From the NCBI GenBank assembly GCA_964347265.1, contig CAYFXV010000001.1, positions 14,397-78,396 on the forward strand: a stretch of DNA of 64,000 bases, written 5' to 3'. This stretch comes from an uncultured archaeon (GTDB lineage Archaea > Aenigmatarchaeota > Aenigmatarchaeia > Aenigmatarchaeales > Aenigmatarchaeaceae). Shown piece after piece: positions 27,395-52,269 of the stretch; position 1 is the stretch's first letter; each line of letters starts with the position of its first letter. The notes beneath the pieces were generated by a model. That model was not told the origin of the DNA. It worked only from the letters and a program-made list of their open reading frames with translations, and did not search any database. A program made the position numbers and the translations under genes.

Positions 27395-27462
27395 TCTCGA
27401 GAAATAAAAAGAAAAAGAAAAAAGGGGTAGCTGATTTCTTCAAACTATTCTATTAAGAATAG
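27395..27462 (-). terminator. Putative terminator of the S-layer-like gene: a hairpin overlapping the stop codon followed by T-tracts.
   Basis: Inverted repeat CTATTCT-atta-AGAATAG at 27445..27462 spans the stop. On the transcribed strand it is followed by CCCCTTTTTCTTTTTCTTTTT. Confidence 0.4.
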
Positions 27463-30239
27463 CTTGGAGATGCTACTGTTCCCGTAACAGTTACTTCAGC
27501 ACCTGCTTTTTGTGTGTCTGTTGCTCCTGGGAATCCAGTTTGGACAATTCTAGCTGCTAAGTCTGTATCTCCTGCTTCCCAACCGGCTATCAATAGAGCT
27601 GTCTTACCTGTTGCGAATTTGTCTGCAACAAGTTTTATCAAACCTGCATTCTCAGGTATTCCTGATGCAGCTCCACATGTATAGTCAGTATGACCCATGA
27701 CTTCAGCTGCTAGCTTGTTAATACAAGGTCCACCAACTATGACTAAATCATAGTTTGATTTGTCTGAGCTTGTTACTTCGGTATCAAGTTTAACAACATC
27801 TGATGTAATTGGTAATACAACATCTGTTGTTATTACGCCTCCAACTCCACCACTTGTTATTACACCTGTTGGAGTCAACACATAAACATTTCCATATGTG
27901 AACACATCTGGATAGCTTATTGTTGCTGAACCTCCAAGGTTTGAAGTCAAGTGATCTGATAGAGTACCGTAAGTTGTCATACCCTTGTATTGTGTTGATG
28001 TTCCTAAGAGCGGAACGTCTGCATAAGCGCTGTCATCTGAATAAAGTGAGGTAGCTATGCTTACTTTGTTGTTTGTACTATCCCATGATACTGGTAGATA
28101 CAACCAATTATGTGTTTGTCCGCCTTGTTGTGCTTCTTCAACTAAGATAAAACCTGTACCATCATACCAAGCACTTGTACTTGTTCCTAGTTTAACTGTG
28201 TAGTTCATAGCAGCACTAGTTCTTCCAACTCTTACTACATAATCAATGTGGTTCTTTGCAAATGTTCCACTTCCATAAGCTCCGTCTTCAACTGGTTCTC
28301 CAATTGCTGTTTCATTAGTCCAAGTTCCTGCTGTAGGACCATATGTAGCAACTGTTGTTGTATTGTCAGCATTTCTAACAAGTCTTATACCTGCAAATCC
28401 TAGTTGTGGATAAATCCAGGTTCCTGCGGTCATTGCACCTGAAGAATAGTTTGTATAGAAATACAAACCACCTTGACCTGTTGTTATTAACTTTGGTGCA
28501 AGGAAAGAGTATTCTCTACCAAGAGGTCCTGGTGTAGTAAAATCTGTGTATGCTGTTCCTGCAATATATCCATCTCCATTTAGGTCAACATTGATAGTTT
28601 TAGATGTATTGCTTATAAGGTAAACTCTATAAATGTTTCCATCAACTATCAAATTTGCTATGGCTCCATTTGAAGTTTGGTTACCTGTTGCTGTAATTGA
28701 ATTTCCTGACTCATCTGTAAATGTAAATTCACCAGTTGCTGCTGTATAAGCTGTAAATACCATTGTGTGGGAGAATCCTCCTTTCTGTATCACGAAAAAG
28801 TCTTGATCAACTGCGCTAATGTTTGCTCCCTCATCAAATACAACATCTCTCCAATCGTTTTCAGTGCCTGATGCTGTTACGGGTGCTGATGCCCATCTCC
28901 ATGTTACTCCGTCTGATGAATAGACTGAGAACATTTGTTCTTCAGCATCTGCAGCATTCTTGTATTTTAAGAACATGTTGTATCCAGAAGGATTGAATGT
29001 TATTGATTGTCTGTTTGCTGCATCTGTAAAATCTGGAATAATACTGTTGAATTTTATGTCAAAGGTTGATGCAAAGGAATCTGCCACTTTATCTCCTGCA
29101 GATAACCACTTATCTAAAGTTGGAGTATAGGTTAAAGAGAATACGGACCAACCACCTGATACACTTGAAGTCATTCCTGATACTAATTCAGATACGACTG
29201 ATGTACCTTTTGTTACTGTTCCTGCAGAACTTACTTTAACTTTGTCTGCGCCTATTGCTAATGTTGCATAATCTGCTGCTCCTGTCTTACCTTGGAAGAC
29301 TTTTATTGCAGCAATTTGTGTTCCATCAGACAAAGTTTTGGTTTCTCCTGCCTTTAATGTAAATGATTCACCATTTACATCCCCAATGGCAGAATAATAT
29401 GTTGATGTTCCTATAGTTTGTGCAGCAACTCCTGTCAAAGTAACTGTATAGTCTTTTCCTTCAGATGTTATTGTTTGTGGTGCTCCTGTTTCTACAGTAA
29501 CTAAATTCTTACCTCCAAGTAAGGTCATAGTTGAGATTGTATCAGTTGAACTACCATATGTGGCATCTGATATAACGAAATCTTTTCCTAAAATACTTAT
29601 AGTTGTACCTTGAATTACAGCCTGCAATAGTGTATTACTGGTAACACCTGATAAAGAGACTGGTGTTGAAAATGTTAGTTTGTATGTATAAAGTGGATAA
29701 GATGCTGGAACTTTAAAGGAAATTCTTGGCGTATTTTCAGTTGTAGGTCTTTCAAATTTTATTTGTGCGCCATTGCTACCTAAATCAGTCTCACCCAATA
29801 AATACAAATACTGTTTATATTGGTAAGCTCCACCAGATGCTGATGAATAAGTTTTGGTTCCTAACAAAGATGGTATATCTGAAGTTGTTATAATTCCCTT
29901 AACATTTTGCGGGTTTGTATAAGGTGTTAAAAATATACCAGATGTTTCTATTTTTGCTCCACCTGTAACACTTTCTCCTGCAATTGTTGTTGTTACATCT
30001 GTGGTTGTCTTAGCATTTGCTGCCATATTAACAGCTACATCAACAGCACCTGCAACATCAGCTGGTGCGGCTCTTGCCCCGATTACAAACAGTGGAAAAC
30101 TAACTGTTGAATCTGTTACTGTTATCATATCTGATATTTTTCCTAATTCTGTTACAGTAGATGCTAACACTGGACTCATTAATGACATTCCTGTCATAAG
30201 TGCTGAACCTGCTATCGCAGCCAATTTTTTAAATTGCAT
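27453..30239 (-). CDS. Large secreted Thr/Ser/Gly-rich surface protein, an S-layer protein candidate.
   Basis: 928 aa with signal peptide MQFKKLAAIAGSALMTGMSLMSPVLAS and low-complexity T/S/G-rich beta-type sequence. It has a strong SD (GGAGG) and a GC-rich leader. The internal + ORF 30001..30264 is spurious. Confidence 0.5.
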   Translation of the reverse strand: MQFKKLAAIAGSALMTGMSLMSPVLASTVTELGKISDMITVTDSTVSFPLFVIGARAAPADVAGAVDVAVNMAANAKTTTDVTTTIAGESVTGGAKIETSGIFLTPYTNPQNVKGIITTSDIPSLLGTKTYSSASGGAYQYKQYLYLLGETDLGSNGAQIKFERPTTENTPRISFKVPASYPLYTYKLTFSTPVSLSGVTSNTLLQAVIQGTTISILGKDFVISDATYGSSTDTISTMTLLGGKNLVTVETGAPQTITSEGKDYTVTLTGVAAQTIGTSTYYSAIGDVNGESFTLKAGETKTLSDGTQIAAIKVFQGKTGAADYATLAIGADKVKVSSAGTVTKGTSVVSELVSGMTSSVSGGWSVFSLTYTPTLDKWLSAGDKVADSFASTFDIKFNSIIPDFTDAANRQSITFNPSGYNMFLKYKNAADAEEQMFSVYSSDGVTWRWASAPVTASGTENDWRDVVFDEGANISAVDQDFFVIQKGGFSHTMVFTAYTAATGEFTFTDESGNSITATGNQTSNGAIANLIVDGNIYRVYLISNTSKTINVDLNGDGYIAGTAYTDFTTPGPLGREYSFLAPKLITTGQGGLYFYTNYSSGAMTAGTWIYPQLGFAGIRLVRNADNTTTVATYGPTAGTWTNETAIGEPVEDGAYGSGTFAKNHIDYVVRVGRTSAAMNYTVKLGTSTSAWYDGTGFILVEEAQQGGQTHNWLYLPVSWDSTNNKVSIATSLYSDDSAYADVPLLGTSTQYKGMTTYGTLSDHLTSNLGGSATISYPDVFTYGNVYVLTPTGVITSGGVGGVITTDVVLPITSDVVKLDTEVTSSDKSNYDLVIVGGPCINKLAAEVMGHTDYTCGAASGIPENAGLIKLVADKFATGKTALLIAGWEAGDTDLAARIVQTGFPGATDTQKAGAEVTVTGTVASPSYS

Positions 30240-39545: not shown

Positions 39546-40514
39546 CTACTTGCCTGAAACTGTTACGCTAGCTGTTCTTTCAACCCAATAACCATAGTCT
39601 GCTGTTACTTTGATCTGATCTGACCTAAATGTTGAAGGTATGGATGTTACAGTTACATCACAAGTTATTGTTGCTTCACCTTTTGTTAATTCAAATGTAT
39701 CGGCACAATCTTCCTCACCACTCCATCCAGGTACATCTGATACATCTATGTCTATCCAGTTTAATTGTGTTTCTGCATCAATTTCATAATCAGTTCCATC
39801 ATAAGCAACTGCACCTTGTAGGTAAACTGTTCCACCACCTACGCTACTAGCTTTTATTTGTAGTGTAAATGTTTGATCACCATCAACAATTACATTTGTT
39901 GGTTTTACTGTCACATATAATGCAACAGGACCTCCTGTTGAAGTGAATGAATTTTGATTTAATGATCTTCCTGCTGCTTTTGCTGCATCAGCTTCTGCCT
40001 CATCATAAATCCATACATTACCTGTAACAGTAGTTGTGTAATCGTAATAAAGTCTTCCTATGAATACATCAGTTCTTGATATTCCTGGATCAATAGCTGT
40101 AGGTGAGGTTAAATACCAGTTTACTGTCTTCTCGTCTGCTGGGACATCTCTAACTGGGTCATACGGATCCATATCCTTTCCCATAGTTTGATGAGTTGTA
40201 GTGGTAGTACCTCTTTCAGTCCAATATAAACCACCGTCTGGTGAGAAGTCACTTCGAAGAGCTGAACCTTGCAACACAGCTAATGCACTACCATCTGGTA
40301 CACTTGAACCACCTTTGTTAATAATTGTCATTGTAATTTTTGCTGAACGGTTGTTATAAACTTCTGTATTATCTATAGAGAATTCTTCTACTACTAAACC
40401 GCCTCCAGCAAAAACTGTAGGTGATGTTATCCATGGTATTGATATTGGTCCGCCCTGAATACACCCTGCTATAAAGATTATAGCCAGCGTAGCTAACAAA
40501 ATCTCTTTTTTCAT
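39546..40514 (-). CDS. Secreted lipoprotein-like protein, paralog A.
   Basis: 322 aa with signal peptide plus lipobox-like LAIIFIAGCIQG. It is a paralog of 40623..41582 and shares ETQLNW, the KAAGR block and overall layout with it. Confidence 0.5.
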   Translation of the reverse strand: MKKEILLATLAIIFIAGCIQGGPISIPWITSPTVFAGGGLVVEEFSIDNTEVYNNRSAKITMTIINKGGSSVPDGSALAVLQGSALRSDFSPDGGLYWTERGTTTTTHQTMGKDMDPYDPVRDVPADEKTVNWYLTSPTAIDPGISRTDVFIGRLYYDYTTTVTGNVWIYDEAEADAAKAAGRSLNQNSFTSTGGPVALYVTVKPTNVIVDGDQTFTLQIKASSVGGGTVYLQGAVAYDGTDYEIDAETQLNWIDIDVSDVPGWSGEEDCADTFELTKGEATITCDVTVTSIPSTFRSDQIKVTADYGYWVERTASVTVSGK

Positions 40515-40622
40515 TTAAAAATCACCTTTTATTTCTATCATAAAATTGTAAGGCGTATATTTATAGATTTAGGTTAGGGAGTTGTACATTGCTTACACTA
40601 CAAAAAATTTGCATTTTAGAAT

Positions 40623-41582
40623 TTATCTTCCTTGAACTGTTACAACTGCTTCTCTTTCTTGGTAATAACCATAGGTCACTAATACATTGAGTAGATATGA
40701 TTTAAAAGTTGATGGTGCTGAAGGTACTTTAGCTTCACAAACTAGTGTCATGGATCTTCCTCCAAAAACTTCCTGATCACCAGTACATTCTGCAACATTT
40801 AAATTTGGAGCATCCACAGCCACATTAAGCCAGTTTAATTGTGTTTCTGCATCTAATGCTAAATCAGAAACTGTTGCACTATCGTAATCTATGTCTTTAT
40901 TAAAAATTGTACCAGTTGCAGTATTAGTTATATCTATGTTAAAAGTAAATTCGGTTTCACCTTCATACAGTATTATTGGATTTGGAGTTAATCTAACATT
41001 TACACCAACTGGTCCTGAAATTGGTGTGAAACTTGATGTTCTCAGGGCTCTTCCTGCTGCTTTTGTTGCTTCTGCTTCCGAATCTGTATAAACCCATATG
41101 TTACCATTCACACCTGATGAATAATCACTGTAAACTCTTAGTATGAATGTGTCTTGTCTTGTTTGACCTGGTGTTATGGTCGGAGAAACCAAACTCCAGC
41201 TAAATCTTTCCATATCAGGTGGAGTGCCTCTTACAACGTTTTCAGGATCCATATCTTTAGAAAAATATCTTATTTCACTTCTATCATCACCTGCATCCCT
41301 ACCATACCAATATTTACCAGTTGTATCATCAAGATCAATATTTGAACCTGTTAAATAAACTAGAGCTGAATCATTTGCAACTGTTGTTCCTCCCCTGTTT
41401 TCAATTTCTCCTACTACTCTTACTGTTCTATTACTATAAACAGGAGTTGGATCTGCTGTAAAACTTATTATTTCTAAACCTATGCCTCCAAGTCCTACTG
41501 TTGGCCCCAATCCTGGTATTTCTCCTATACATCCTGCAACTAAAGCTATTGCTAAAATTGATATTAAAATTTTGGATTTCAT
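40623..41582 (-). CDS. Secreted lipoprotein-like protein, paralog B.
   Basis: 319 aa with signal/lipobox LAIALVAGCIGE. It has the same domain layout as paralog A, including TKAAGRALRTSSF versus AKAAGRSLNQNSF. Confidence 0.5.
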   Translation of the reverse strand: MKSKILISILAIALVAGCIGEIPGLGPTVGLGGIGLEIISFTADPTPVYSNRTVRVVGEIENRGGTTVANDSALVYLTGSNIDLDDTTGKYWYGRDAGDDRSEIRYFSKDMDPENVVRGTPPDMERFSWSLVSPTITPGQTRQDTFILRVYSDYSSGVNGNIWVYTDSEAEATKAAGRALRTSSFTPISGPVGVNVRLTPNPIILYEGETEFTFNIDITNTATGTIFNKDIDYDSATVSDLALDAETQLNWLNVAVDAPNLNVAECTGDQEVFGGRSMTLVCEAKVPSAPSTFKSYLLNVLVTYGYYQEREAVVTVQGR

Positions 41583-41689
41583 ATTTTCACTGATATAAAA
41601 TTGTAAAGTACGTATTTATAGTTAGCGGTCATTATTACACTTTATAAAAACAATGTGGATTAACAAATTAAAAGAATAAATATTCAGTA

Positions 41690-42952
41690 TTATTGTTTTG
41701 CTATAGGTGCATTGTGGATAAGTAAGTCATTTTCACCAAAGTAATTATGAGCTTCAGTCTCTATATTATAAACATAACCTGTATATGCGTTTATTTTATT
41801 TGAAACTAGAGAAACTAAAACTGCTTCTTCATTTAAAGATGGGAATACTTTATGATTCCATGTAAACCAGTTACCATTATAAAAATAAATATCCCAAAAT
41901 CCAAAATGAGATGTTTTTTCTTTAACTTTTGTTTCAACTTTTTTACCATCTTTATATCCTATTACTGTATCACCAACTTTCAAATCTTCAATTCTTTTAA
42001 ATCCTTCAGGCGTTAAAACCTTAAAACCCTCTATTAAACAACCTCCACCGCCTCCAAAAGGTGTGGGAGTTGTAGGTTTTTCTCCTTTTACTGTTATAGG
42101 AATATGGTTGTAAAGAGTGTATTTATAACCAATATCCATATTTAAAGATTTAATACTCATTATGGTTTGTGGAGCAGTGGAAAATTCACAAATTGTTGGA
42201 ACAGCCCTACCTTTTATAAATTTCAAATCTTTATTTAATGTAAAGGTCCCTCCACTCGACGTATAATTGGGACAACTACTTATAATTATATTGTTTGGAG
42301 CAGTGAATTTTATATCTAAATTATCAAAAAAACCATCTCCCCTATTATTATAATTAATATACATATCATATCCTGATAGATCCGCTATAAATGGCTGTGA
42401 TTCAGAAAAAGTTAAATAAACATTTAATGGGCCTTTTGCAAAAGTAGATTGAATAGGAATATCTTGAAGTGTTCCTTCTACTTCTCTTACAACATATTCA
42501 GATTCTGATAAAACTACTATATCTTGAAAAACAGAACTGGTCGCAGAATATGCTACAAAAAACTTTATTATACATCGTCTATCTATCTCTGATTCTTCTG
42601 ATTTCCATCTCCAATGCCACATACAAGTTTGGTTTGCTTTTAATGTTCCAGATGCATCAGTACCACAATCGTCTTTTAGAAATTTATTAGTAGCAACATC
42701 AAAACAAGGATAATCATAAACTATTAAATTAACATTGTTTAAATCATAAAGTTGCTTATTCCTTAATTCAAAAAAAACTTGAACTTCTCTTCCTCCTCTA
42801 ATTTCTGAAGAAGTTGTTTCTGCTTTTATGTAAAGGTCTGGACTTCCTGGATCAATTAAAAAAGTCTCTGGTTGTGGTAGTGATGGAAATGGAGGTAGAA
42901 TCGAACATAAAGAAATCAGAACAATGGGAAGTAATAAAAGTAAATATTTCAT
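41690..42952 (-). CDS. Secreted protein with a C-terminal Hint domain (hedgehog/intein-like, bacterial-intein-like type).
   Basis: 420 aa with a signal peptide. A Gly5 linker is followed by CLIEGFKVLTPEGFKRIEDLKVGDTVIG (intein block A), KTSHFGF (block B, TxxH), YNIETEAHNYFG (block F) and NDLLIHN (block G, terminal HN). Only 6 non-nucleophilic residues (APIAKQ) follow. Confidence 0.7.
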   Translation of the reverse strand: MKYLLLLLPIVLISLCSILPPFPSLPQPETFLIDPGSPDLYIKAETTSSEIRGGREVQVFFELRNKQLYDLNNVNLIVYDYPCFDVATNKFLKDDCGTDASGTLKANQTCMWHWRWKSEESEIDRRCIIKFFVAYSATSSVFQDIVVLSESEYVVREVEGTLQDIPIQSTFAKGPLNVYLTFSESQPFIADLSGYDMYINYNNRGDGFFDNLDIKFTAPNNIIISSCPNYTSSGGTFTLNKDLKFIKGRAVPTICEFSTAPQTIMSIKSLNMDIGYKYTLYNHIPITVKGEKPTTPTPFGGGGGCLIEGFKVLTPEGFKRIEDLKVGDTVIGYKDGKKVETKVKEKTSHFGFWDIYFYNGNWFTWNHKVFPSLNEEAVLVSLVSNKINAYTGYVYNIETEAHNYFGENDLLIHNAPIAKQ

Positions 42953-43881
42953 GGTCTTACCTCAACATCAACATTTCCTATTGTATAATAGTCGTAATCA
43001 ATTGATGCATTTATAAAATATGTTTTTTCTGGACCTGGAGAAATAATAGATGGTGTTGTAATGCCAGAACATCTTATTTCAAGAGATTTTTTATTTATTA
43101 TATAAATATCTTCATCACTCGTACATATTCTGCTTCCAGAATCACAATCAAAAAATGGACAAGTATCAACACCTCCGGTAACAGTGAAACCTTCAGGAAA
43201 TTCTATTTTAAATTTACCGCTAGGAATTTTTCTTAATAATCCAGTCCCTTTATCATGCACCACTAAATAAACTGCTAAAGAAGTACCAGTTTTTGCAGGC
43301 AAACTAGTTCCAAAATCAAAATAAATTTTTATAGGGCCTCTCCCAACATTTACAGTTGGTGTAAAAGTAGTTGTCTTTCCTGCCCTATGTAATTCTTGTA
43401 AGTGTGCTGTTTCAATTACAAGAATATCAATCTCTGATACTGCTGTGTGTTCAAAATCAAATTTAAATTTTATAGGACAAGTTGTTTTTATATTTGCAAT
43501 ATCTTCTGATGAAGGAGCTTGAAAAGTCCATTCAACTAATCTTGTTTCTGTTGGAGAAAGTTTAGTCCAAGCAGGATTACTTGTTGGGGGAATATCAGGA
43601 ACTCCTCCTACAGGTGTACATAAGCCAGTATCATAAATATTATAACCAACTTCTTTAGTATAAATTTCATCTTGGTTTAATAATTCAAAATAAATTGAAA
43701 ACTCATCTTCCGTACGAACAGATGTTGAAGGTAGAACAGTCAAATTGTGTATAGAGATTACATCATGTGGTTTTTCTTTTACTTTAGGACCAGAAGGAGT
43801 AAAAAATGGTATTTCAAATGGTAGACCTACACATCCTGAAAATAATAAAATTAATATTAAACTTAATAACAATTTTTTCAT
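42949..43881 (-). CDS. Lipoprotein-like secreted protein of the envelope cluster.
   Basis: 310 aa. Signal peptide ends in LLFSGCVG (lipobox-like). Its 4-nt overlap with the downstream Hint-protein gene indicates translational coupling. Confidence 0.45.
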   Translation of the reverse strand: MKKLLLSLILILLFSGCVGLPFEIPFFTPSGPKVKEKPHDVISIHNLTVLPSTSVRTEDEFSIYFELLNQDEIYTKEVGYNIYDTGLCTPVGGVPDIPPTSNPAWTKLSPTETRLVEWTFQAPSSEDIANIKTTCPIKFKFDFEHTAVSEIDILVIETAHLQELHRAGKTTTFTPTVNVGRGPIKIYFDFGTSLPAKTGTSLAVYLVVHDKGTGLLRKIPSGKFKIEFPEGFTVTGGVDTCPFFDCDSGSRICTSDEDIYIINKKSLEIRCSGITTPSIISPGPEKTYFINASIDYDYYTIGNVDVEVRP

Positions 43882-43921
43882 TAAATCTCCACTTTATATT
43901 TTATTTTTTAATTTAAAGATT

Positions 43922-46246
43922 TTATTGCGGAGGTGCAATTGCCAATTGTAAGCTTCGTGATTGTGTATTCAAATATCTGTAGTCAGTCAATCCTACTATC
44001 AAACTAGTTTTACTATCAACATCTGCAGGTAAAGCATCGGGTTTTATGAAAAAGGAAACTCTCTTGAATTCTTGAGATTCTATATCTCTACCATGGGTGC
44101 ATGTTATTACATAAAATCCAGAGGGGTTTGTAACTTCGCAACTATCAAAACTGTAATATAAGTCCGAATTAGATAAATTATCAATCAAATTATCAGGAAC
44201 TTTAATTACGAATTTCGCTTGTTTTATTATACCCGTACCTTCATTAAGAAGAGAAGCTATAACAATGTTCGTTTCATCGCTTCTTAATGGCTGTTTCCTA
44301 GAAATTAATGTTGCCTTAACAGGACCTCCAGTATAATAAGATGTCAATTCTTTTATTACTATTTGTTTGTTTTTAAGCAAATCCATGTATAAGCCCGTAT
44401 CCATAACATCAATTGGTATGGATACATTAACTTTATAATTATAAGTCAAATTAGCATTTACTTTAAATAATGTGGTAGCATAAGTATAGGTTGTACCTGG
44501 AACACAAGGAGCTGGATTACCATCTACATCGAGACATTGTCCTCCCAAATCAAGTGTTCCATTAGTCCAAGAATCTTCTTTATAAATAAATGAAGCTACT
44601 TCTATCTCACTTGGATATGTAACATCACTCCAAGTACAAGTGGATCCTGAACCACTACCACGACCACATTCTATTTCAGTAATAGATCCAACATCAGATA
44701 TTTTTGCTGTAACAGGATCTGTCCAAGTTGCATAAATCTCTAATGTTGAAGCTCCGAAAACAGAAGGATCTGATTGATATTCTCCTTTGTTAGTAAGTTC
44801 TATAAAACCTATTGTTGGTTCACTTGGTTCCAAAGTTCCAGGTATAGATGTATAAATATCAAAGCCTGTAAATTCGAGGGATAGTATTGTTCCTGTTGGT
44901 ATGCTTTTTGCTACTTGTATTTTTTGTTGTTGCAATAAATAGTATTGTTGAGGATTAGTCAATAACAACCAACTATCTGATAATCCGCTTTGGGCTTGTG
45001 CTAGAAGAACATTTAATGGGCTCAAATATGTTTCACCAAAACCTTGAACTTGGGGCCACCACACTCCGAATATTGCACTACCAACAAAACCTGTGTATGT
45101 AGTTGAAAATATGAACAATGATATCAAAATTACTATAACTCCAACAGCTGGTCTTGCTTCTGGTCCAGCTGTTGCACCTGAAAACAAGGAAAAAAACCAA
45201 ACAACTGAAAACAATACCACATTCACATCAGAAATATCAAAAGCAAAAGGTCCGAAAGGTTGAAAGAACGTAAAGAGAGCCCCAATCATAACAAGTGAAA
45301 AAATTAATGATTCTGCAGCTCTACCTTTTTTTGAAAGACTTAAATTTATTGTTATTACACCGCCTTCTTCTTCAATATGAGTAGGAATTGCTATAAAAAA
45401 TGCTGCAGACATCAAACCTAATGGCCAACTTAAAGGACCAGCAAAAGTTGAAGAAATTTGAAATGCTAAATAAATACCAAGAACTAATCTTACCCATGCT
45501 AATATAAGCTTATATGGTTGACTAGTCTTGTATCGGAATGGTAAGTTGAAATAAAATATAAATCCAAAAACTAAAGCTAGCATACGGTTCAAAGTAAAAA
45601 AGTCCAATAGTATGAAAAAGAATGCAACTAATTTGGCGAAAGCTTTTACTGTCAAAAAGCCCATAGCTCCACCACTTATCTGTTCCCCTCGTCCGACTTC
45701 ACTGACAATACTACGTTCTGAAGGAAAAACAGAATGAATTGCAATAAAAACAAACCCTATTGCTAAATATGTTCTAGGAGGTATACCAAAGAATGGTGGA
45801 ATAATTATAGAACATGCTGCGGCTATTATATAAATGAGAATTTGAAAAAATTTAAGTTGTGTTCCTTTTCCTGCTATTTCTGCGATAGTTCTAAAGCTAG
45901 GTTTTTTTACTTTAGAAGATGTTGGTCTTCCTTTTGTATAAGCTATGTCCTCTCCTTCCTGAGTCTTTGTTAATGCATGACCTCTCATTTTTTTAAAAAA
46001 ACTAACTAATCCAGTATCTCCCGCTGCTTCTGCTTGTTTTTGCCTTTCCATTGCATAACTTATGTTTGCACCACTATAGGCTTTTCTAACTGCTGTATTA
46101 AAATCTACTCCTTTTGCAGTATACTCATCTATTTTTTGTAACATATACAAATATCTTTGTTTTTTCGCATCTGAAAGATCATCTCTAGAAGCTTGTTTAA
46201 AAATATAATTATATAATTTTTTGTAATCTGTTTTCTTTGTTGCCAT
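43922..46246 (-). CDS. Large polytopic membrane protein: ~130-aa cytoplasmic N-terminus, 8-10 TM helices and a ~380-aa extracytoplasmic C-terminal domain.
   Basis: 774 aa. The hydrophobicity pattern is readable from the sequence, and no known family motif was recognised. The + ORF 43745..43951 overlaps this gene's 3' end and is spurious. Confidence 0.45.
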   Translation of the reverse strand: MATKKTDYKKLYNYIFKQASRDDLSDAKKQRYLYMLQKIDEYTAKGVDFNTAVRKAYSGANISYAMERQKQAEAAGDTGLVSFFKKMRGHALTKTQEGEDIAYTKGRPTSSKVKKPSFRTIAEIAGKGTQLKFFQILIYIIAAACSIIIPPFFGIPPRTYLAIGFVFIAIHSVFPSERSIVSEVGRGEQISGGAMGFLTVKAFAKLVAFFFILLDFFTLNRMLALVFGFIFYFNLPFRYKTSQPYKLILAWVRLVLGIYLAFQISSTFAGPLSWPLGLMSAAFFIAIPTHIEEEGGVITINLSLSKKGRAAESLIFSLVMIGALFTFFQPFGPFAFDISDVNVVLFSVVWFFSLFSGATAGPEARPAVGVIVILISLFIFSTTYTGFVGSAIFGVWWPQVQGFGETYLSPLNVLLAQAQSGLSDSWLLLTNPQQYYLLQQQKIQVAKSIPTGTILSLEFTGFDIYTSIPGTLEPSEPTIGFIELTNKGEYQSDPSVFGASTLEIYATWTDPVTAKISDVGSITEIECGRGSGSGSTCTWSDVTYPSEIEVASFIYKEDSWTNGTLDLGGQCLDVDGNPAPCVPGTTYTYATTLFKVNANLTYNYKVNVSIPIDVMDTGLYMDLLKNKQIVIKELTSYYTGGPVKATLISRKQPLRSDETNIVIASLLNEGTGIIKQAKFVIKVPDNLIDNLSNSDLYYSFDSCEVTNPSGFYVITCTHGRDIESQEFKRVSFFIKPDALPADVDSKTSLIVGLTDYRYLNTQSRSLQLAIAPPQ

Positions 46247-46300
46247 ATTAATCCCAATGCTTTTATCTAAACTAAATATGAGAAATCGTACTTATAATAT

Positions 46301-47086
46301 TTATTCAAAAAACACTATTACCTGAGCAGAAGAAACATCATACCTTGTATTCGGTTCTGTAGAAAATTCAATTGTATTATTTCCAGTTTTAAGAACACTA
46401 GTAGGAAAGTCCTTATAGATTGTTGTTATCCCACTATGAACTTTTACCCTATTTATAATAACATCAAGGTCTCCTATTCCTTCTCTATCAGCATAAACAA
46501 CAATTCTTGCTCTTTCCATATACTCAATCTCTAAATCATTTAATTCAAAATTAAAACTTTTAGTTTTCTTACCATAATAATTAACAATAACATCTGAATC
46601 AAAGATGTAAACAGTTGGAGCCCAAATTTTCCAACCAGAGTTTTCAGCCTTTATTTCTAAAATATTGTTTTTTTCTAAAATGTCTTTATCAAATCCAATT
46701 AGTTTTTCGCCAACAGGGGGATAGTCTGCATAAACTTGTTGTCCATTGACTAAAATTATCAATCTGCCATAATAGTTTGTGTTCCAAACTCTAAGATTTA
46801 TCAAAACTTCAGAAACTTCATCTGGATCTGAAACTTGAAAACCAACTCTTTTCTCTTCATTAACAAATGCGCCATTAGAAACCTCTCCTTTTACATAACC
46901 AACTTTTTCTTCTCCTGTTGTAAAAGAAACTTCAAAATTATAAAATTCTATTGTTCTATCAGCTGGTAAATATCTATAAGGATATGTTCTAGAAGGTCTA
47001 AAAATTAAGCCACCTCCTCCAAAAACTAGCAAAAATACAATTAAACAAATTATTGCTATTACTAAAATCGGTAGGAAGTCTGGCAT
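46301..47086 (-). CDS. N-terminally anchored extracytoplasmic protein, first gene of the envelope cluster.
   Basis: 261 aa. N-terminal TM MPDFLPILVIAIICLIVFLLVFGGGG, then a soluble domain. Confidence 0.45.
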   Translation of the reverse strand: MPDFLPILVIAIICLIVFLLVFGGGGLIFRPSRTYPYRYLPADRTIEFYNFEVSFTTGEEKVGYVKGEVSNGAFVNEEKRVGFQVSDPDEVSEVLINLRVWNTNYYGRLIILVNGQQVYADYPPVGEKLIGFDKDILEKNNILEIKAENSGWKIWAPTVYIFDSDVIVNYYGKKTKSFNFELNDLEIEYMERARIVVYADREGIGDLDVIINRVKVHSGITTIYKDFPTSVLKTGNNTIEFSTEPNTRYDVSSAQVIVFFE

Positions 47087-48415: not shown

Positions 48416-49171
48416 ATGATTGACAAACTTTTAAGAGCTTATTTAATTGAGAAAAAACCTTGGTATGGAATTGTATTAGGTTTTCTTTTTGCAAGCTTAG
48501 GAATAATATTTGCTTTTCTTATTTTTAGAACAGAACCATCATTTCCTGCAGTTTTTTTAACAACTTTAGCAGCAGCACCTTTAATTGTTAAATTAATAAA
48601 AAGTGAAAGACAAAAAGAAAACATATTAAGAAGACATGAAAATATTATTGGAGTTTATTTTTATTTGTTCTTTGGAATGACCATTGCATTTGCTTTATTT
48701 AATGCTTTTTTACCAACTGAAATTTCTAGTTCTATTTTTAGTGAACAGCTAAACAAATTTTCTGCAGGTTATTTTACAGGACAATCTCAACTATTTTTTG
48801 AAATAATTTTAAATAATCTTGGCTTAGTTTTATTCTTTTTCATATTATCTTTGTTTTATGGTTCTGGTTCAATGTTTCTTTTATCTTGGAACTCGTCCAT
48901 ACTTGGAGTAATGTGGGGCAATATATTGAAGATTTCACTTTCTTTAATGGATCCACTTGTTTTTGTTCAAAATGTTTTTTTCATATTTCCTTTCTTATTA
49001 CCTGAAGTTGAGGCTTATTTCTTAGCTTCAATAGCTGGTGGTATAGTTTCTGTAAACTTGGATAATAAGAAAAAATTAGAAACTGCAATGAATGATTCTT
49101 TGATGTTTTTAGTATTATCTATAGTGTTGATAATAATTGCTGGTGGTATAGAAACTATTTTGATTGCATAA
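48416..49171 (+). CDS. Polytopic membrane protein (SpoIIM/DUF95-like).
   Basis: 251 aa with six or more TM helices. Confidence 0.35.
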   Translation: MIDKLLRAYLIEKKPWYGIVLGFLFASLGIIFAFLIFRTEPSFPAVFLTTLAAAPLIVKLIKSERQKENILRRHENIIGVYFYLFFGMTIAFALFNAFLPTEISSSIFSEQLNKFSAGYFTGQSQLFFEIILNNLGLVLFFFILSLFYGSGSMFLLSWNSSILGVMWGNILKISLSLMDPLVFVQNVFFIFPFLLPEVEAYFLASIAGGIVSVNLDNKKKLETAMNDSLMFLVLSIVLIIIAGGIETILIA

Positions 49172-50501
49172 ATTTATGTCAGAATTATTAATTATGATTA
49201 TGAAAAAATGGATTTTTTTATTATTCTCATTAACGTTTGTTTTTGTTACAATAAATTTGACAAGGGTTGAAGCTATAACAAACCCTACCCCTGATCCTGA
49301 ATGTGATAGAAAAGAACCAGGAGAAAGCTTAAATGACGGAATTTGTAATTTAACTTGTCAATATATCGAATGCAATCCTGATGGAACTAGTGATTATGAA
49401 GTTAAGGTATTCAGGGAAGATTTCGATTATCTTGATAGCGATATATGGGCTTTTGAAGGAGTTGGACCCTTAGTTGAAAGTGGGAATTTAGTTGTGCACG
49501 TACTAGCATGGCAAACAAATTATGATACAAAGATTTTCACTGGAGAAAAATTTGGAAAAGCAATTTATGAGTTTAAAATTAAAATGACTGAAAAAGTTCA
49601 AGATGTTGCATCATTCTTTTTCTTGTATGAAGGACAAGAAACTGGATGTAAACCAGATTCGTATCCATTTTGTCAGGAAATAGATGTTGAATTTTTCGGT
49701 TACGTTCCCGAAGGATCAAACCCAAGAATAGATGATAGAAATTCAATTGTTTTTGCAAGTAGAAATTCTACTGGTCATTGGAGTTGGCATATAGTATCAG
49801 CTCCAAGCAACTTGGACGATGAGAATTGGCATTTATTCAGATTAGAATATAGAACAGATTCGATAGTACTTACAGTTGATGATTCAGTAATTGGAACTAT
49901 TACAGATATCATTCCGGATAAAAATATGCACATATATTTTGGGGCATATGGAAGTACCCATGAAAATTCGTATACCATGTATGTCGCTTATGTTGAAGTA
50001 TTTAAATTATTTAATGTATGTAAATTAGAATGTGGTGCTGATTCTGAGTGTGATGAAATAATACCAGGGTGTAGTGGTTGTAATGATACTTGCCGATATT
50101 GCTCTGGTGACGTAGATGGTGACGGTGATGTTGATTATAATGATTTCATTATTCTTGCAGGGGCTTATGGCTCGAGCAGCGGTCAACCAGCCTATGATGT
50201 GTGTGCAGACTTTGATAAAGACGGTGATGTTGACTATGATGATTTCATGGTTCTTGCAGGAAACTATGGGAAGAGTTGTCTAGGATCTACAGGAACGTTT
50301 ACAGGTCCTTCTAGAATAACAGAGAGCATGATGAAGAAATTAGAAAAAGAGAAAAAACCAAAAGCATACTTTACATTGCCTTATTTGTTAGAAGTTGTGA
50401 TTCCGTTTGTTAGTTTTGTAATTATAGCCTTGATTGAGATTTTTGTTTTAGGATTGATAATTAGAAAATTGCATGAGATGTATCCTAAGAAAAAGAAATA
50501 A
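49164..50501 (+). CDS. Secreted GH16-family glycoside hydrolase (beta-glucanase/laminarinase-like) with a dockerin-like module and a C-terminal TM anchor.
   Basis: 445 aa with a signal peptide. The GH16 catalytic motif is QEIDVEF (E-x-D-x-x-E). It has two Ca-binding dockerin-like repeats, DVDGDGDVDYNDFIILAGAYG and DFDKDGDVDYDDFMVLAGNYG, and a terminal hydrophobic helix followed by KKKK. Confidence 0.65.
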   Translation: MHKFMSELLIMIMKKWIFLLFSLTFVFVTINLTRVEAITNPTPDPECDRKEPGESLNDGICNLTCQYIECNPDGTSDYEVKVFREDFDYLDSDIWAFEGVGPLVESGNLVVHVLAWQTNYDTKIFTGEKFGKAIYEFKIKMTEKVQDVASFFFLYEGQETGCKPDSYPFCQEIDVEFFGYVPEGSNPRIDDRNSIVFASRNSTGHWSWHIVSAPSNLDDENWHLFRLEYRTDSIVLTVDDSVIGTITDIIPDKNMHIYFGAYGSTHENSYTMYVAYVEVFKLFNVCKLECGADSECDEIIPGCSGCNDTCRYCSGDVDGDGDVDYNDFIILAGAYGSSSGQPAYDVCADFDKDGDVDYDDFMVLAGNYGKSCLGSTGTFTGPSRITESMMKKLEKEKKPKAYFTLPYLLEVVIPFVSFVIIALIEIFVLGLIIRKLHEMYPKKKK

Positions 50502-52155: not shown

Positions 52156-52269
52156 TGGGCGAGGTGAGATTTGAACTCACGACCTCCAGTATTTACAGAA
52201 CGCAGCCACAAAAAATGACTAACGTCATTTTATAAGACTGGCGCTCTAACCAAACTAAGCTACCCGCCC
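52156..52269 (-). tRNA. Intron-containing tRNA. The anticodon is TAT (tRNA-Ile) if the intron is at the canonical 37/38 position.
   Basis: Reverse complement: acceptor GGGCGGG/CTCGCCC, D-arm GCTT..GAGC, anticodon stem CCAGT/ACTGG enclosing CTTATA plus a ~39-nt insert (with hairpin ATGAC-GTTA-GTCAT), T-arm GTGAG-TTCAAAT-CTCAC. Confidence 0.65.

Follow-up and report, generated by a model that had tools for sequence, protein, structure and literature searches.

A putative self-removing, BIL-like HINT cassette at the C terminus of an exported protein of an Aenigmatarchaeota archaeon

The last 116 residues of an exported, presumably lipid-anchored protein of an uncultured archaeon probably form a self-removing cassette that resembles bacterial intein-like (BIL) HINT domains, a reading to which a rough probability of 0.6 is assigned. 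The gene was found in a window of 64,000 nucleotides, which is the whole stretch of DNA analyzed (GenBank assembly GCA_964347265.1, contig CAYFXV010000001.1). The module is homologous to HINT domains and shares their fold, keeps their catalytic residues, is under purifying selection, is present in some and absent from other syntenic orthologs, and is exchanged among host proteins. The Hint domain itself is already detected in databases, and the domain call will not surprise an intein specialist. NCBI lists a [quoted passage not shown] and Pfam matches to the present protein had already been precomputed, so that the novelty is lower than the first-pass annotation of the window implied. What is new is the placement of the module at the terminus, together with its family size, the exchange of the cassette, and a signature in which the terminal His-Asn (HN) is accompanied by Lys. 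The literature searched yielded no account of surface proteins of DPANN or CPR organisms that end in a Hint module.

The gene, taken from the open reading frame (ORF) listing, occupies positions 41690 to 42952 on the minus strand and encodes a precursor of 420 residues. The first-pass annotation had given these limits exactly and left the strand unstated; the plus strand of the same interval has stops throughout the frame. All features described below lie on the minus strand. The precursor consists, in order, of a signal peptide with a lipobox-like Cys16, a tandem beta-sandwich N-domain, a Gly linker, the Hint module, and a tail of six residues, followed by the stop codon TAA (41690 to 41692). 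The precursor matches hypothetical protein GTN40_00760 of a Candidatus Aenigmarchaeota metagenome-assembled genome at 100% identity. The window has a G+C content of about 30% and contains a thermosome gene and an intron-containing tRNA, which is compatible with a DPANN archaeon. The hydrophobic N-terminal signal segment (42905 to 42952) runs to a lipobox-like S14-L15-C16 and is defined by conservation among homologs, with M1, S14, L15, and C16 invariant across 22 of them. It is a single hydrophobic segment at the N terminus and, together with the Aenigmarchaeota match, it bears out the earlier view that the Hint module is carried by an exported archaeal protein. Three neighboring proteins of about 310 to 320 residues have canonical lipobox-like ends of their own (LFSGC, LVAGC, and FIAGC), and these sequence motifs suggest that the neighbors and the target are exported proteins that are possibly lipid anchored, in the target through Cys16.

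AlphaFold2 modeled the full-length protein (pLDDT, 83.3) as two beta-rich regions separated by a disordered linker at residues 293 to 302, where the pLDDT falls below 50. The fold of the model defines the N-domain (approximately residues 28 to 290, positions 42083 to 42871) as two Ig-like or macroglobulin-like beta-sandwiches. It is followed by a Pro/Thr/Gly linker, EKPTTPTPFGGGGG (residues 291 to 304, positions 42041 to 42082), which leads to the predicted scissile residue Gly304. The N-domain is paralogous both to the upstream neighbor of 310 residues (BLASTP E value, 5e-9) and to the C-terminal ectodomain of a protein of 774 residues (hhalign against the family of that protein; probability, 87%; E value, 3.9e-6).

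These genes belong to an operon-like block of six, in the order 261, 774, 310, target, 319, and 322 amino acids, which adjoins pelota and is syntenic in further Aenigmarchaeota-type contigs. The first gene (46301 to 47086) encodes a syntenic protein of 261 residues with an N-terminal transmembrane anchor and a beta-rich ectodomain. The second (43922 to 46246) encodes the 774-residue polytopic membrane protein, which has a helical N terminus, about 10 transmembrane helices, and a C-terminal beta domain; no enzyme fold was recognized in it, and its structure model gave no informative fold match. The 310-residue paralog with the lipobox LFSGC (42949 to 43881) immediately precedes the target gene, and co-translation of the two is probable since its stop overlaps the target start by 4 nt. 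Downstream lie two lipobox paralogs (together 39546 to 41582) of 319 residues (40623 to 41582) and 322 residues (39546 to 40514), which are 41% identical to each other and have a conserved TATA-like element, TATAAATAC, ahead of them. Pfam and NCBIfam gave no assignment for any gene of the block, and a Pfam Sortase match (E value, 0.2) was dismissed as noise. A scan for sigma-70 promoters and terminators returned 39 matches versus 37.7 expected, and its bacterial models are uninformative for an archaeon. The genome's S-layer-family gene lies away from the operon, at 27453 to 30239.

The predicted HINT (BIL-like) autoprocessing module comprises residues 305 to 414 (110 amino acids; 41711 to 42040). 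The target sequence alone stays below the thresholds of the public models: Pfam Intein_splicing gave an E value of 1.1e-5 and 25.7 bits versus a cutoff of 35.8, Hint_2 (PF13403) gave 18.2 to 20.9 bits versus a gathering threshold of 28.4 and covered block A alone, and NCBIfam intein_Cterm gave 12.1 bits versus 15.6. Significance was therefore drawn from a family profile and from structure. The Pfam check proposed in the first-pass annotation accordingly gave a divided outcome, in which the target by itself fell short of gathering, whereas each of the 16 modules in the alignment that underlies the profile (A1) individually matched both Hint_2 and Intein_splicing. The A1 profile matched the Clostridium thermocellum BIL domain 2LWY over nearly its full length (E value, 2.7e-10), Tetrahymena BIL2 (2.4e-7), and mini-inteins (1e-7 to 1e-5, with the gp41-1 intein at 1.6e-7). 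The proposed structure check came out in favor of the domain call: the modeled module has a HINT fold, and Foldseek ranked 2LWY first (TM score, 0.66; root mean square deviation, 2.8 Å), followed by BIL2 and mini-inteins. The family-profile matches and the HINT fold of the model make the HINT identity secure, and profile and fold together uphold the original call of a small Hint/BIL-type domain, and no classical intein, in the C-terminal ~115 residues. A six-frame hmmsearch at maximum sensitivity found no second copy of the module in the window.

The junction reads GGGGG|C305LIEGFKVLTPEGF..., and the module ends ...YNIETEAHNYFGENDLLIH413N414, followed by APIAKQ and the stop. Block A (C305-LIEGFKVLTPEGFKRIEDLKVGDTVIG, positions 41957 to 42040) begins with Cys305, the predicted nucleophile, whose codon is TGT (42038 to 42040). 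Blocks F and G (YVYNIETEAHNYFGENDLLIHN, 41711 to 41776) extend to His413-Asn414, with the Asn414 codon AAT at 41711 to 41713. The tail APIAKQ (41693 to 41710) has Ala at +1 and Lys at +5. The Gly linker with a Gly|Cys junction, the six residues after the module, and the nonnucleophilic +1 Ala can all be read from the ORF, as had been reported. The peptides quoted for the four blocks and their flanks (GGGGG|CLIEGFKVLTPEGFKRIEDLKVGDTVIG, YNIETEAHNYFG, NDLLIHN, and APIAKQ) are also all present, and one of the four blocks had been misassigned. Block B had been placed at KTSHFGF, which contains T-S-H instead of TxxH and whose His position holds L, Q, Y, or H among homologs. The invariant TxxH lies 20 residues farther on, at W-F-T364-W-N-H367 (T364-W-N-H367, positions 41852 to 41863, within WFTWNHKVFP). 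Its Thr and His (T60 and H63 of the module) are invariant in 16 of 16 sequences and align with TFDH of 2LWY. The invariant columns of A1 are C1, G5, T10, G13, I17, E18, G23, T60, H63, N99, Y100, L107, H109, and N110, and the nucleophile, block B, and the terminal His-Asn are all among them.

The module is optional. It is present in 9 of about 33 clusters that share the N-domain; most clusters without it stop a few residues past ...ITV[KR]G, and a few have other C-terminal extensions. The same operon slot is filled by either a 436-residue gene with the module (locus L001) or a 303-residue gene without it (locus L002). The ortholog lacking the module terminates directly after ...ITVRG, and comparison of the two forms reveals a clean insertion of linker, module, and tail ahead of the stop. 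The promoter-like element of the following gene, TATAAATAC, is kept in both forms, and the stop position is conserved across nine orthologous clusters. The module also terminates a 1,409-residue subtilase of another archaeon (locus L004), and its further hosts are unrelated extracytoplasmic proteins, including PKD-repeat, beta-propeller, crystallin-like, and type IV secretion system pilin-like proteins.

The similarity of modules does not follow that of their hosts. The N-domains and modules are 56% and 98% identical between P0002 and P0003, 70% and 60% between P0005 and P0007, and 36% and 84% between P0008 and P0010, respectively. The target module is 71% and 67% identical to modules of foreign hosts versus 65 to 68% identical to those of most orthologs. 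In addition, a tract of about 500 bp comprising the linker, module, stop, and intergenic region is shared by two contigs at 96 to 100% DNA identity and is bounded on both sides by sequence of 50 to 80% identity. The two contigs come from one metagenome assembly, so an assembly artifact keeps a residual probability; the bounds on both sides argue against it, as does the P0003 protein, which is identical in a second, independent assembly (L003). Judged from these sequence comparisons, the cassette of linker, module, and tail appears to move between surface-protein genes by recombination. A foreign or recently acquired origin of the module DNA was ruled out, since its G+C content (0.273) and GC3 (0.136) are like those of the host gene (0.301 and 0.141, respectively). 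The ratio of nonsynonymous to synonymous substitutions (dN/dS) is 0.23 to 0.33 for the module and 0.20 to 0.54 for the N-domain; the module is maintained by purifying selection and is not decaying.

The wider family is large. An exhaustive profile search recovered 15,581 cluster representatives at an E value of ≤1e-3, with ordinary inteins and pre-toxin HINTs among them, and 1,350 and 58 representatives at the stricter cutoffs of ≤1e-10 and ≤1e-30, respectively. More distant members of this metagenomic family match PF07591 (PT-HINT). A scan of GTDB genomes for the module found two loci with a derived search pattern that was too specific. The family sample fetched for analysis consisted of 188 module-bearing proteins with 418 modules, 65 of the proteins carrying a single module and 123 carrying tandem arrays of up to 7 or 8 modules. 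The module lies within 12 residues of the C terminus in 51 of the 65 single-copy proteins. Residue 1 is Cys without exception (386 of 386 modules), the preceding residue is Gly in 176 of 386, and the terminal HN is kept in 371 of 390. Among those 371 modules, the +1 residue is Lys in 256 and Cys, Ser, or Thr in only 38, so that approximately 90% have a nonnucleophilic +1. Between zero and nine residues follow HN, and in 19 of 63 proteins the tail is a single Lys. Lys occurs in 42 of 43 distinct short tails, versus 12.3 expected from composition, usually at +1 to +5.

HINT chemistry begins with a Cys that, helped by the Thr and His of block B, turns a peptide bond into a thioester (PMC7664689, PMC7765530, PMC8616854). 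BIL domains, which lack a nucleophilic +1 residue, mostly yield products of N- and C-terminal cleavage (PMC7664689). By analogy, after export and folding, His367 and Thr364 would aid the attack of Cys305 on the Gly304 carbonyl in an N-S acyl shift, and the Gly304-Cys305 bond would become a thioester. Water would resolve it most simply and detach the 110-residue module, and the mature N-domain would remain, two sandwiches ending in a flexible C terminus, ...PTTPTPFGGGGG; cyclization at His413-Asn414 could shed APIAKQ. A self-removing passenger is favored because the product of hydrolysis would equal that of the orthologs without the module and because the module behaves as a cassette. Catalytic competence may be kept by selection in the manner of inteins, since an uncleaved module would burden its host protein, and purifying selection fits a useful function and intein-like self-preservation equally well. 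N-terminal cleavage alone gives no reason for keeping His-Asn where only zero to nine residues follow it, or for the Lys of the tails. These two features hint at a more specific way of resolving the thioester, and they keep two rival readings alive, transfer to a lysine or lipid and BIL-type ligation.

The first rival, which is possible but unlikely, is an enzyme-free covalent tethering device of ultrasmall prokaryotes, similar to hedgehog or the Tetrahymena BUBL system. A lysine amine of the protein's own tail, of a partner surface protein such as an operon paralog, or of the host-cell surface would attack the Gly-Cys thioester, or the thioester would be passed to a membrane lipid; in each case, the C terminus of the N-domain would become covalently attached. 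In Tetrahymena BIL2, the epsilon-amine of a Lys forms an isopeptide that conjugates the N-extein to other proteins (PMC8616854). With this ligation as a precedent, the earlier statement that splicing is excluded was too strong. Its proposal of a thioester-activated or transferred N-domain product is possible. However, the target has no adduct-recognition region, with six residues after the Hint module, whereas Hog domains carry SRR/ARR regions (PMC2362128), and no acceptor or helper enzyme was found among the operon genes. Module-less orthologs in the same operon slot indicate that tethering is not essential for the function of the operon, and the module is also carried by unrelated cargos such as the subtilase.

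The second rival is ligation as in A-type BIL domains, in which Asn414 would cyclize first, the alpha-amine of Ala415 would attack the Gly304 thioester, and APIAKQ would be joined to the N-domain. Dassa et al. are said to have found in 2004 that an A-type BIL domain with a native +1 Ala ligates its flanks by aminolysis after Asn cyclization. Such a reaction would account for the conserved HN, and the closest solved relative of the module by profile and Foldseek is the C. thermocellum BIL domain. In P0036, P0038, and P0043, KGGGGG and a hydrophobic helix come after HN, and there the Gly linker and transmembrane helix would be joined instead, which would reattach a membrane anchor; the tandem HNKG|C arrays also resemble serially excisable units. 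Nevertheless, this reading is given a low probability, as BIL products are mainly cleaved rather than spliced (PMC7664689) and the joining of a tail of one to six residues, often a single Lys, has no obvious use.

A catalytically dead Hint fold that serves as a structural or binding ectodomain in an intact precursor is improbable. It would be a compact folded domain, as in the model, and would be under purifying selection like any other domain. However, the residues that are invariant across many unrelated hosts are precisely the catalytic ones (C1, T60, H63, H109, and N110), the junction is preceded by a disordered Gly linker, and an inactive remnant should have lost Cys1 or HN. A classical intein in a truncated or miscalled gene, or a polymorphic-toxin pre-toxin HINT without its toxin, was rejected as extremely improbable despite weak matches to intein profiles, the PT-HINT matches of distant relatives, and the real inteins of related genomes, because +1 is Ala here and nonnucleophilic in most of the clade, the stop position is conserved, orthologs without the module end at the linker start and thus leave no C-extein missing, no endonuclease, PF07591 hit, or room for a toxin is present in the target, and a conserved paralog of the operon, instead of an immunity gene, lies downstream.

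What the module would mean depends on the fate of the thioester. Should it do no more than cleave itself, the module would be a passenger of the intein kind through which surface proteins diversify, and very small self-cleaving tags might be derived from it. If the thioester is passed to a lysine or lipid, cells with minimal genomes would possess enzyme-independent tethering, a functional analog of sortase and a prokaryotic counterpart of hedgehog and BUBL chemistry. Tethering of this kind could produce an isopeptide-linked surface assembly or an adhesin-to-host cross-link, and it would bear on how episymbiotic archaea build their envelopes and attach, as well as on the prokaryotic roots of hedgehog-type chemistry.

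The known roles of HINT domains in inteins, hedgehog proteins, and bacterial BIL and pre-toxin proteins are thus joined by a compact, strictly C-terminal variant on DPANN surface proteins. The target module has the HINT fold, Cys as its first residue, and TxxH in block B, which define the HINT superfamily. It shares the fold and the four splicing blocks with class 1 mini-inteins (gp41-1, NpuDnaB, and the Mtu RecA splicing domain), but these are inserted at conserved sites of essential proteins and have a C-extein and Cys, Ser, or Thr at +1, whereas the target has none of these and varies by presence or absence at a terminus. PT-HINT domains (PF07591) have the same prokaryotic secreted-protein setting. 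They are proposed to have an autoproteolytic releasing role and directly precede a C-terminal toxin, after which an immunity gene follows (PMC3482391); the target lacks the toxin, the immunity gene, and the PF07591 hit. The hedgehog Hog domain (1AT0) has in common with the target the Gly|Cys junction and the layout of cargo, Gly|Cys, and Hint. However, it is eukaryotic, is 14% identical to the target, and combines Hint with SRR/ARR (PMC2362128), whereas in the archaeal protein only APIAKQ follows and the intein-type terminal His-Asn is kept. BIL2 from the BUBL locus of Tetrahymena thermophila (6TMM/6Y75) belongs to the second group of profile and Foldseek hits, and as a nonintein Hint domain with lysine-directed isopeptide conjugation (PMC8616854), it sets a precedent for the Lys that is conserved close to HN. 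The flanks of BIL2 are ubiquitin-like domains, in a cytosolic polyprotein of a eukaryote, whereas the cargo of the target is an extracellular Ig-like domain and hardly any sequence lies beyond its module. B-type BIL domains (Hint_2, PF13403), for which the target scores below gathering, lack the intein C-terminal motif (PMC7765530), whereas the target has HN. Among solved structures, the A-type BIL domain of C. thermocellum (2LWY) ranks first by both profile and Foldseek and was used as the proxy for its type, as Pfam and NCBIfam contain no BIL-A-specific model. Like the target, A-type BIL domains end in His-Asn, have no nucleophilic +1 residue (PMC7664689), and occur in variable regions of nonconserved, often secreted hosts instead of at conserved sites of essential proteins (PMC7765530). 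In contrast, 2LWY has a bacterial and the target an archaeal (DPANN) host, their lengths are about 135 and 110 amino acids, and they are about 21 to 25% identical. Moreover, 2LWY lies between two substantial flanks, whereas modules of the target group lie at the extreme C terminus and, unlike 2LWY, have a near-constant tail Lys. Because of its archaeal host and the six residues after HN, the module is best described as BIL-like rather than as a member of the A-type BIL domains.

The 420-aa gene with the terminal Hint module (window 41690-42952, minus strand) belongs to a conserved six-gene block (window 39546-47086, minus strand), which adjoins pelota. Four of its protein products are of the lipobox type, one is TM-anchored, and one is a polytopic membrane protein of 774 aa. 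None of the proteins of this block was assigned to a family by Pfam or NCBIfam. Paralogy is detectable among the 310-aa protein, the Hint-bearing protein, and the ectodomain of the membrane protein, and the 319-aa and 322-aa proteins share 41% identity. The block probably encodes an uncharacterised envelope complex of Aenigmarchaeota. One operon version lacking the module contains an additional 633-aa gene (L002:2532-4433), which precedes the large membrane protein and shows a weak match to the transglutaminase core (PF01841). A conserved element, ACCGCTAA-TATAAATAC-N-TTTACAATTTTATATCAGTGAAAA, was found 5' of the 319-aa gene in the intergenic region of the window (41583-41689) and in the equivalent regions of the relatives' loci L001, L002, L005, and L006, with and without the module alike, and is probably an archaeal BRE/TATA promoter inside the block.

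Comparison of two relatives' operons (L005:5873-7225 and L006:2216-3610), both from the assembly GCA_012975005.1, revealed a bounded tract of approximately 500 bp that comprises the linker, Hint module, stop codon, and intergenic region and has DNA identities of 96 to 100%, whereas the operons outside the tract are 50 to 80% identical. This tract indicates that the Hint cassette recombined recently. The protein P0003 was found again in an independent assembly (L003).

The module of the 420-aa protein is followed by the tail APIAKQ (window 41693-41710). Among the proteins P0001 to P0213, lysine is present in 42 of the 43 distinct tails of 1 to 12 residues after the terminal His-Asn, compared with 12.3 expected from composition, and it lies mostly at positions +1 to +5. 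In total, 256 of 371 Hint modules have lysine as the +1 residue. The tail lysine could act as the nucleophile resolving the proposed Gly304-Cys305 thioester. Hint modules also occur in tandem, with 2 to 8 of them making up P0040, P0072, P0073, P0076, and 119 other proteins, and the junctions between modules read HN-K-G-(G)-C. In these proteins, a signal at the N-terminus or a TM helix at the C-terminus is frequent, as is a low-complexity tail.

Elsewhere in the window, a 928-aa S-layer-like family protein (27453-30239, minus strand; PF05124 outer domain, E = 2.8e-15) is encoded in the most GC-rich stretch (0.372). A 445-aa protein (49164-50501, plus strand) gave hits to the profiles of glycoside hydrolase family 16 and of dockerin type I, both near threshold; the presence of a dockerin in a member of the DPANN archaea may merit attention. 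A 114-nt Rfam tRNA match (52156-52269, minus strand; 59.9 bits), at which ARAGORN reported no tRNA, is probably an intron-containing archaeal tRNA.

Putative classical inteins were also found in relatives. A CPSF/beta-CASP-like gene (L004:5352-7904, minus strand) carries an insert that, in a by-eye reading of the translation, ends in VVHN|C and appears to be an endonuclease-bearing classical intein. An MJ0043_C family gene (PF27218; L002:11125-13515, minus strand), enlarged to 796 aa compared with 395 to 420 aa elsewhere, is the second candidate and has a faint Intein_splicing match. These candidate classical inteins provide a useful contrast to the terminal Hint module.
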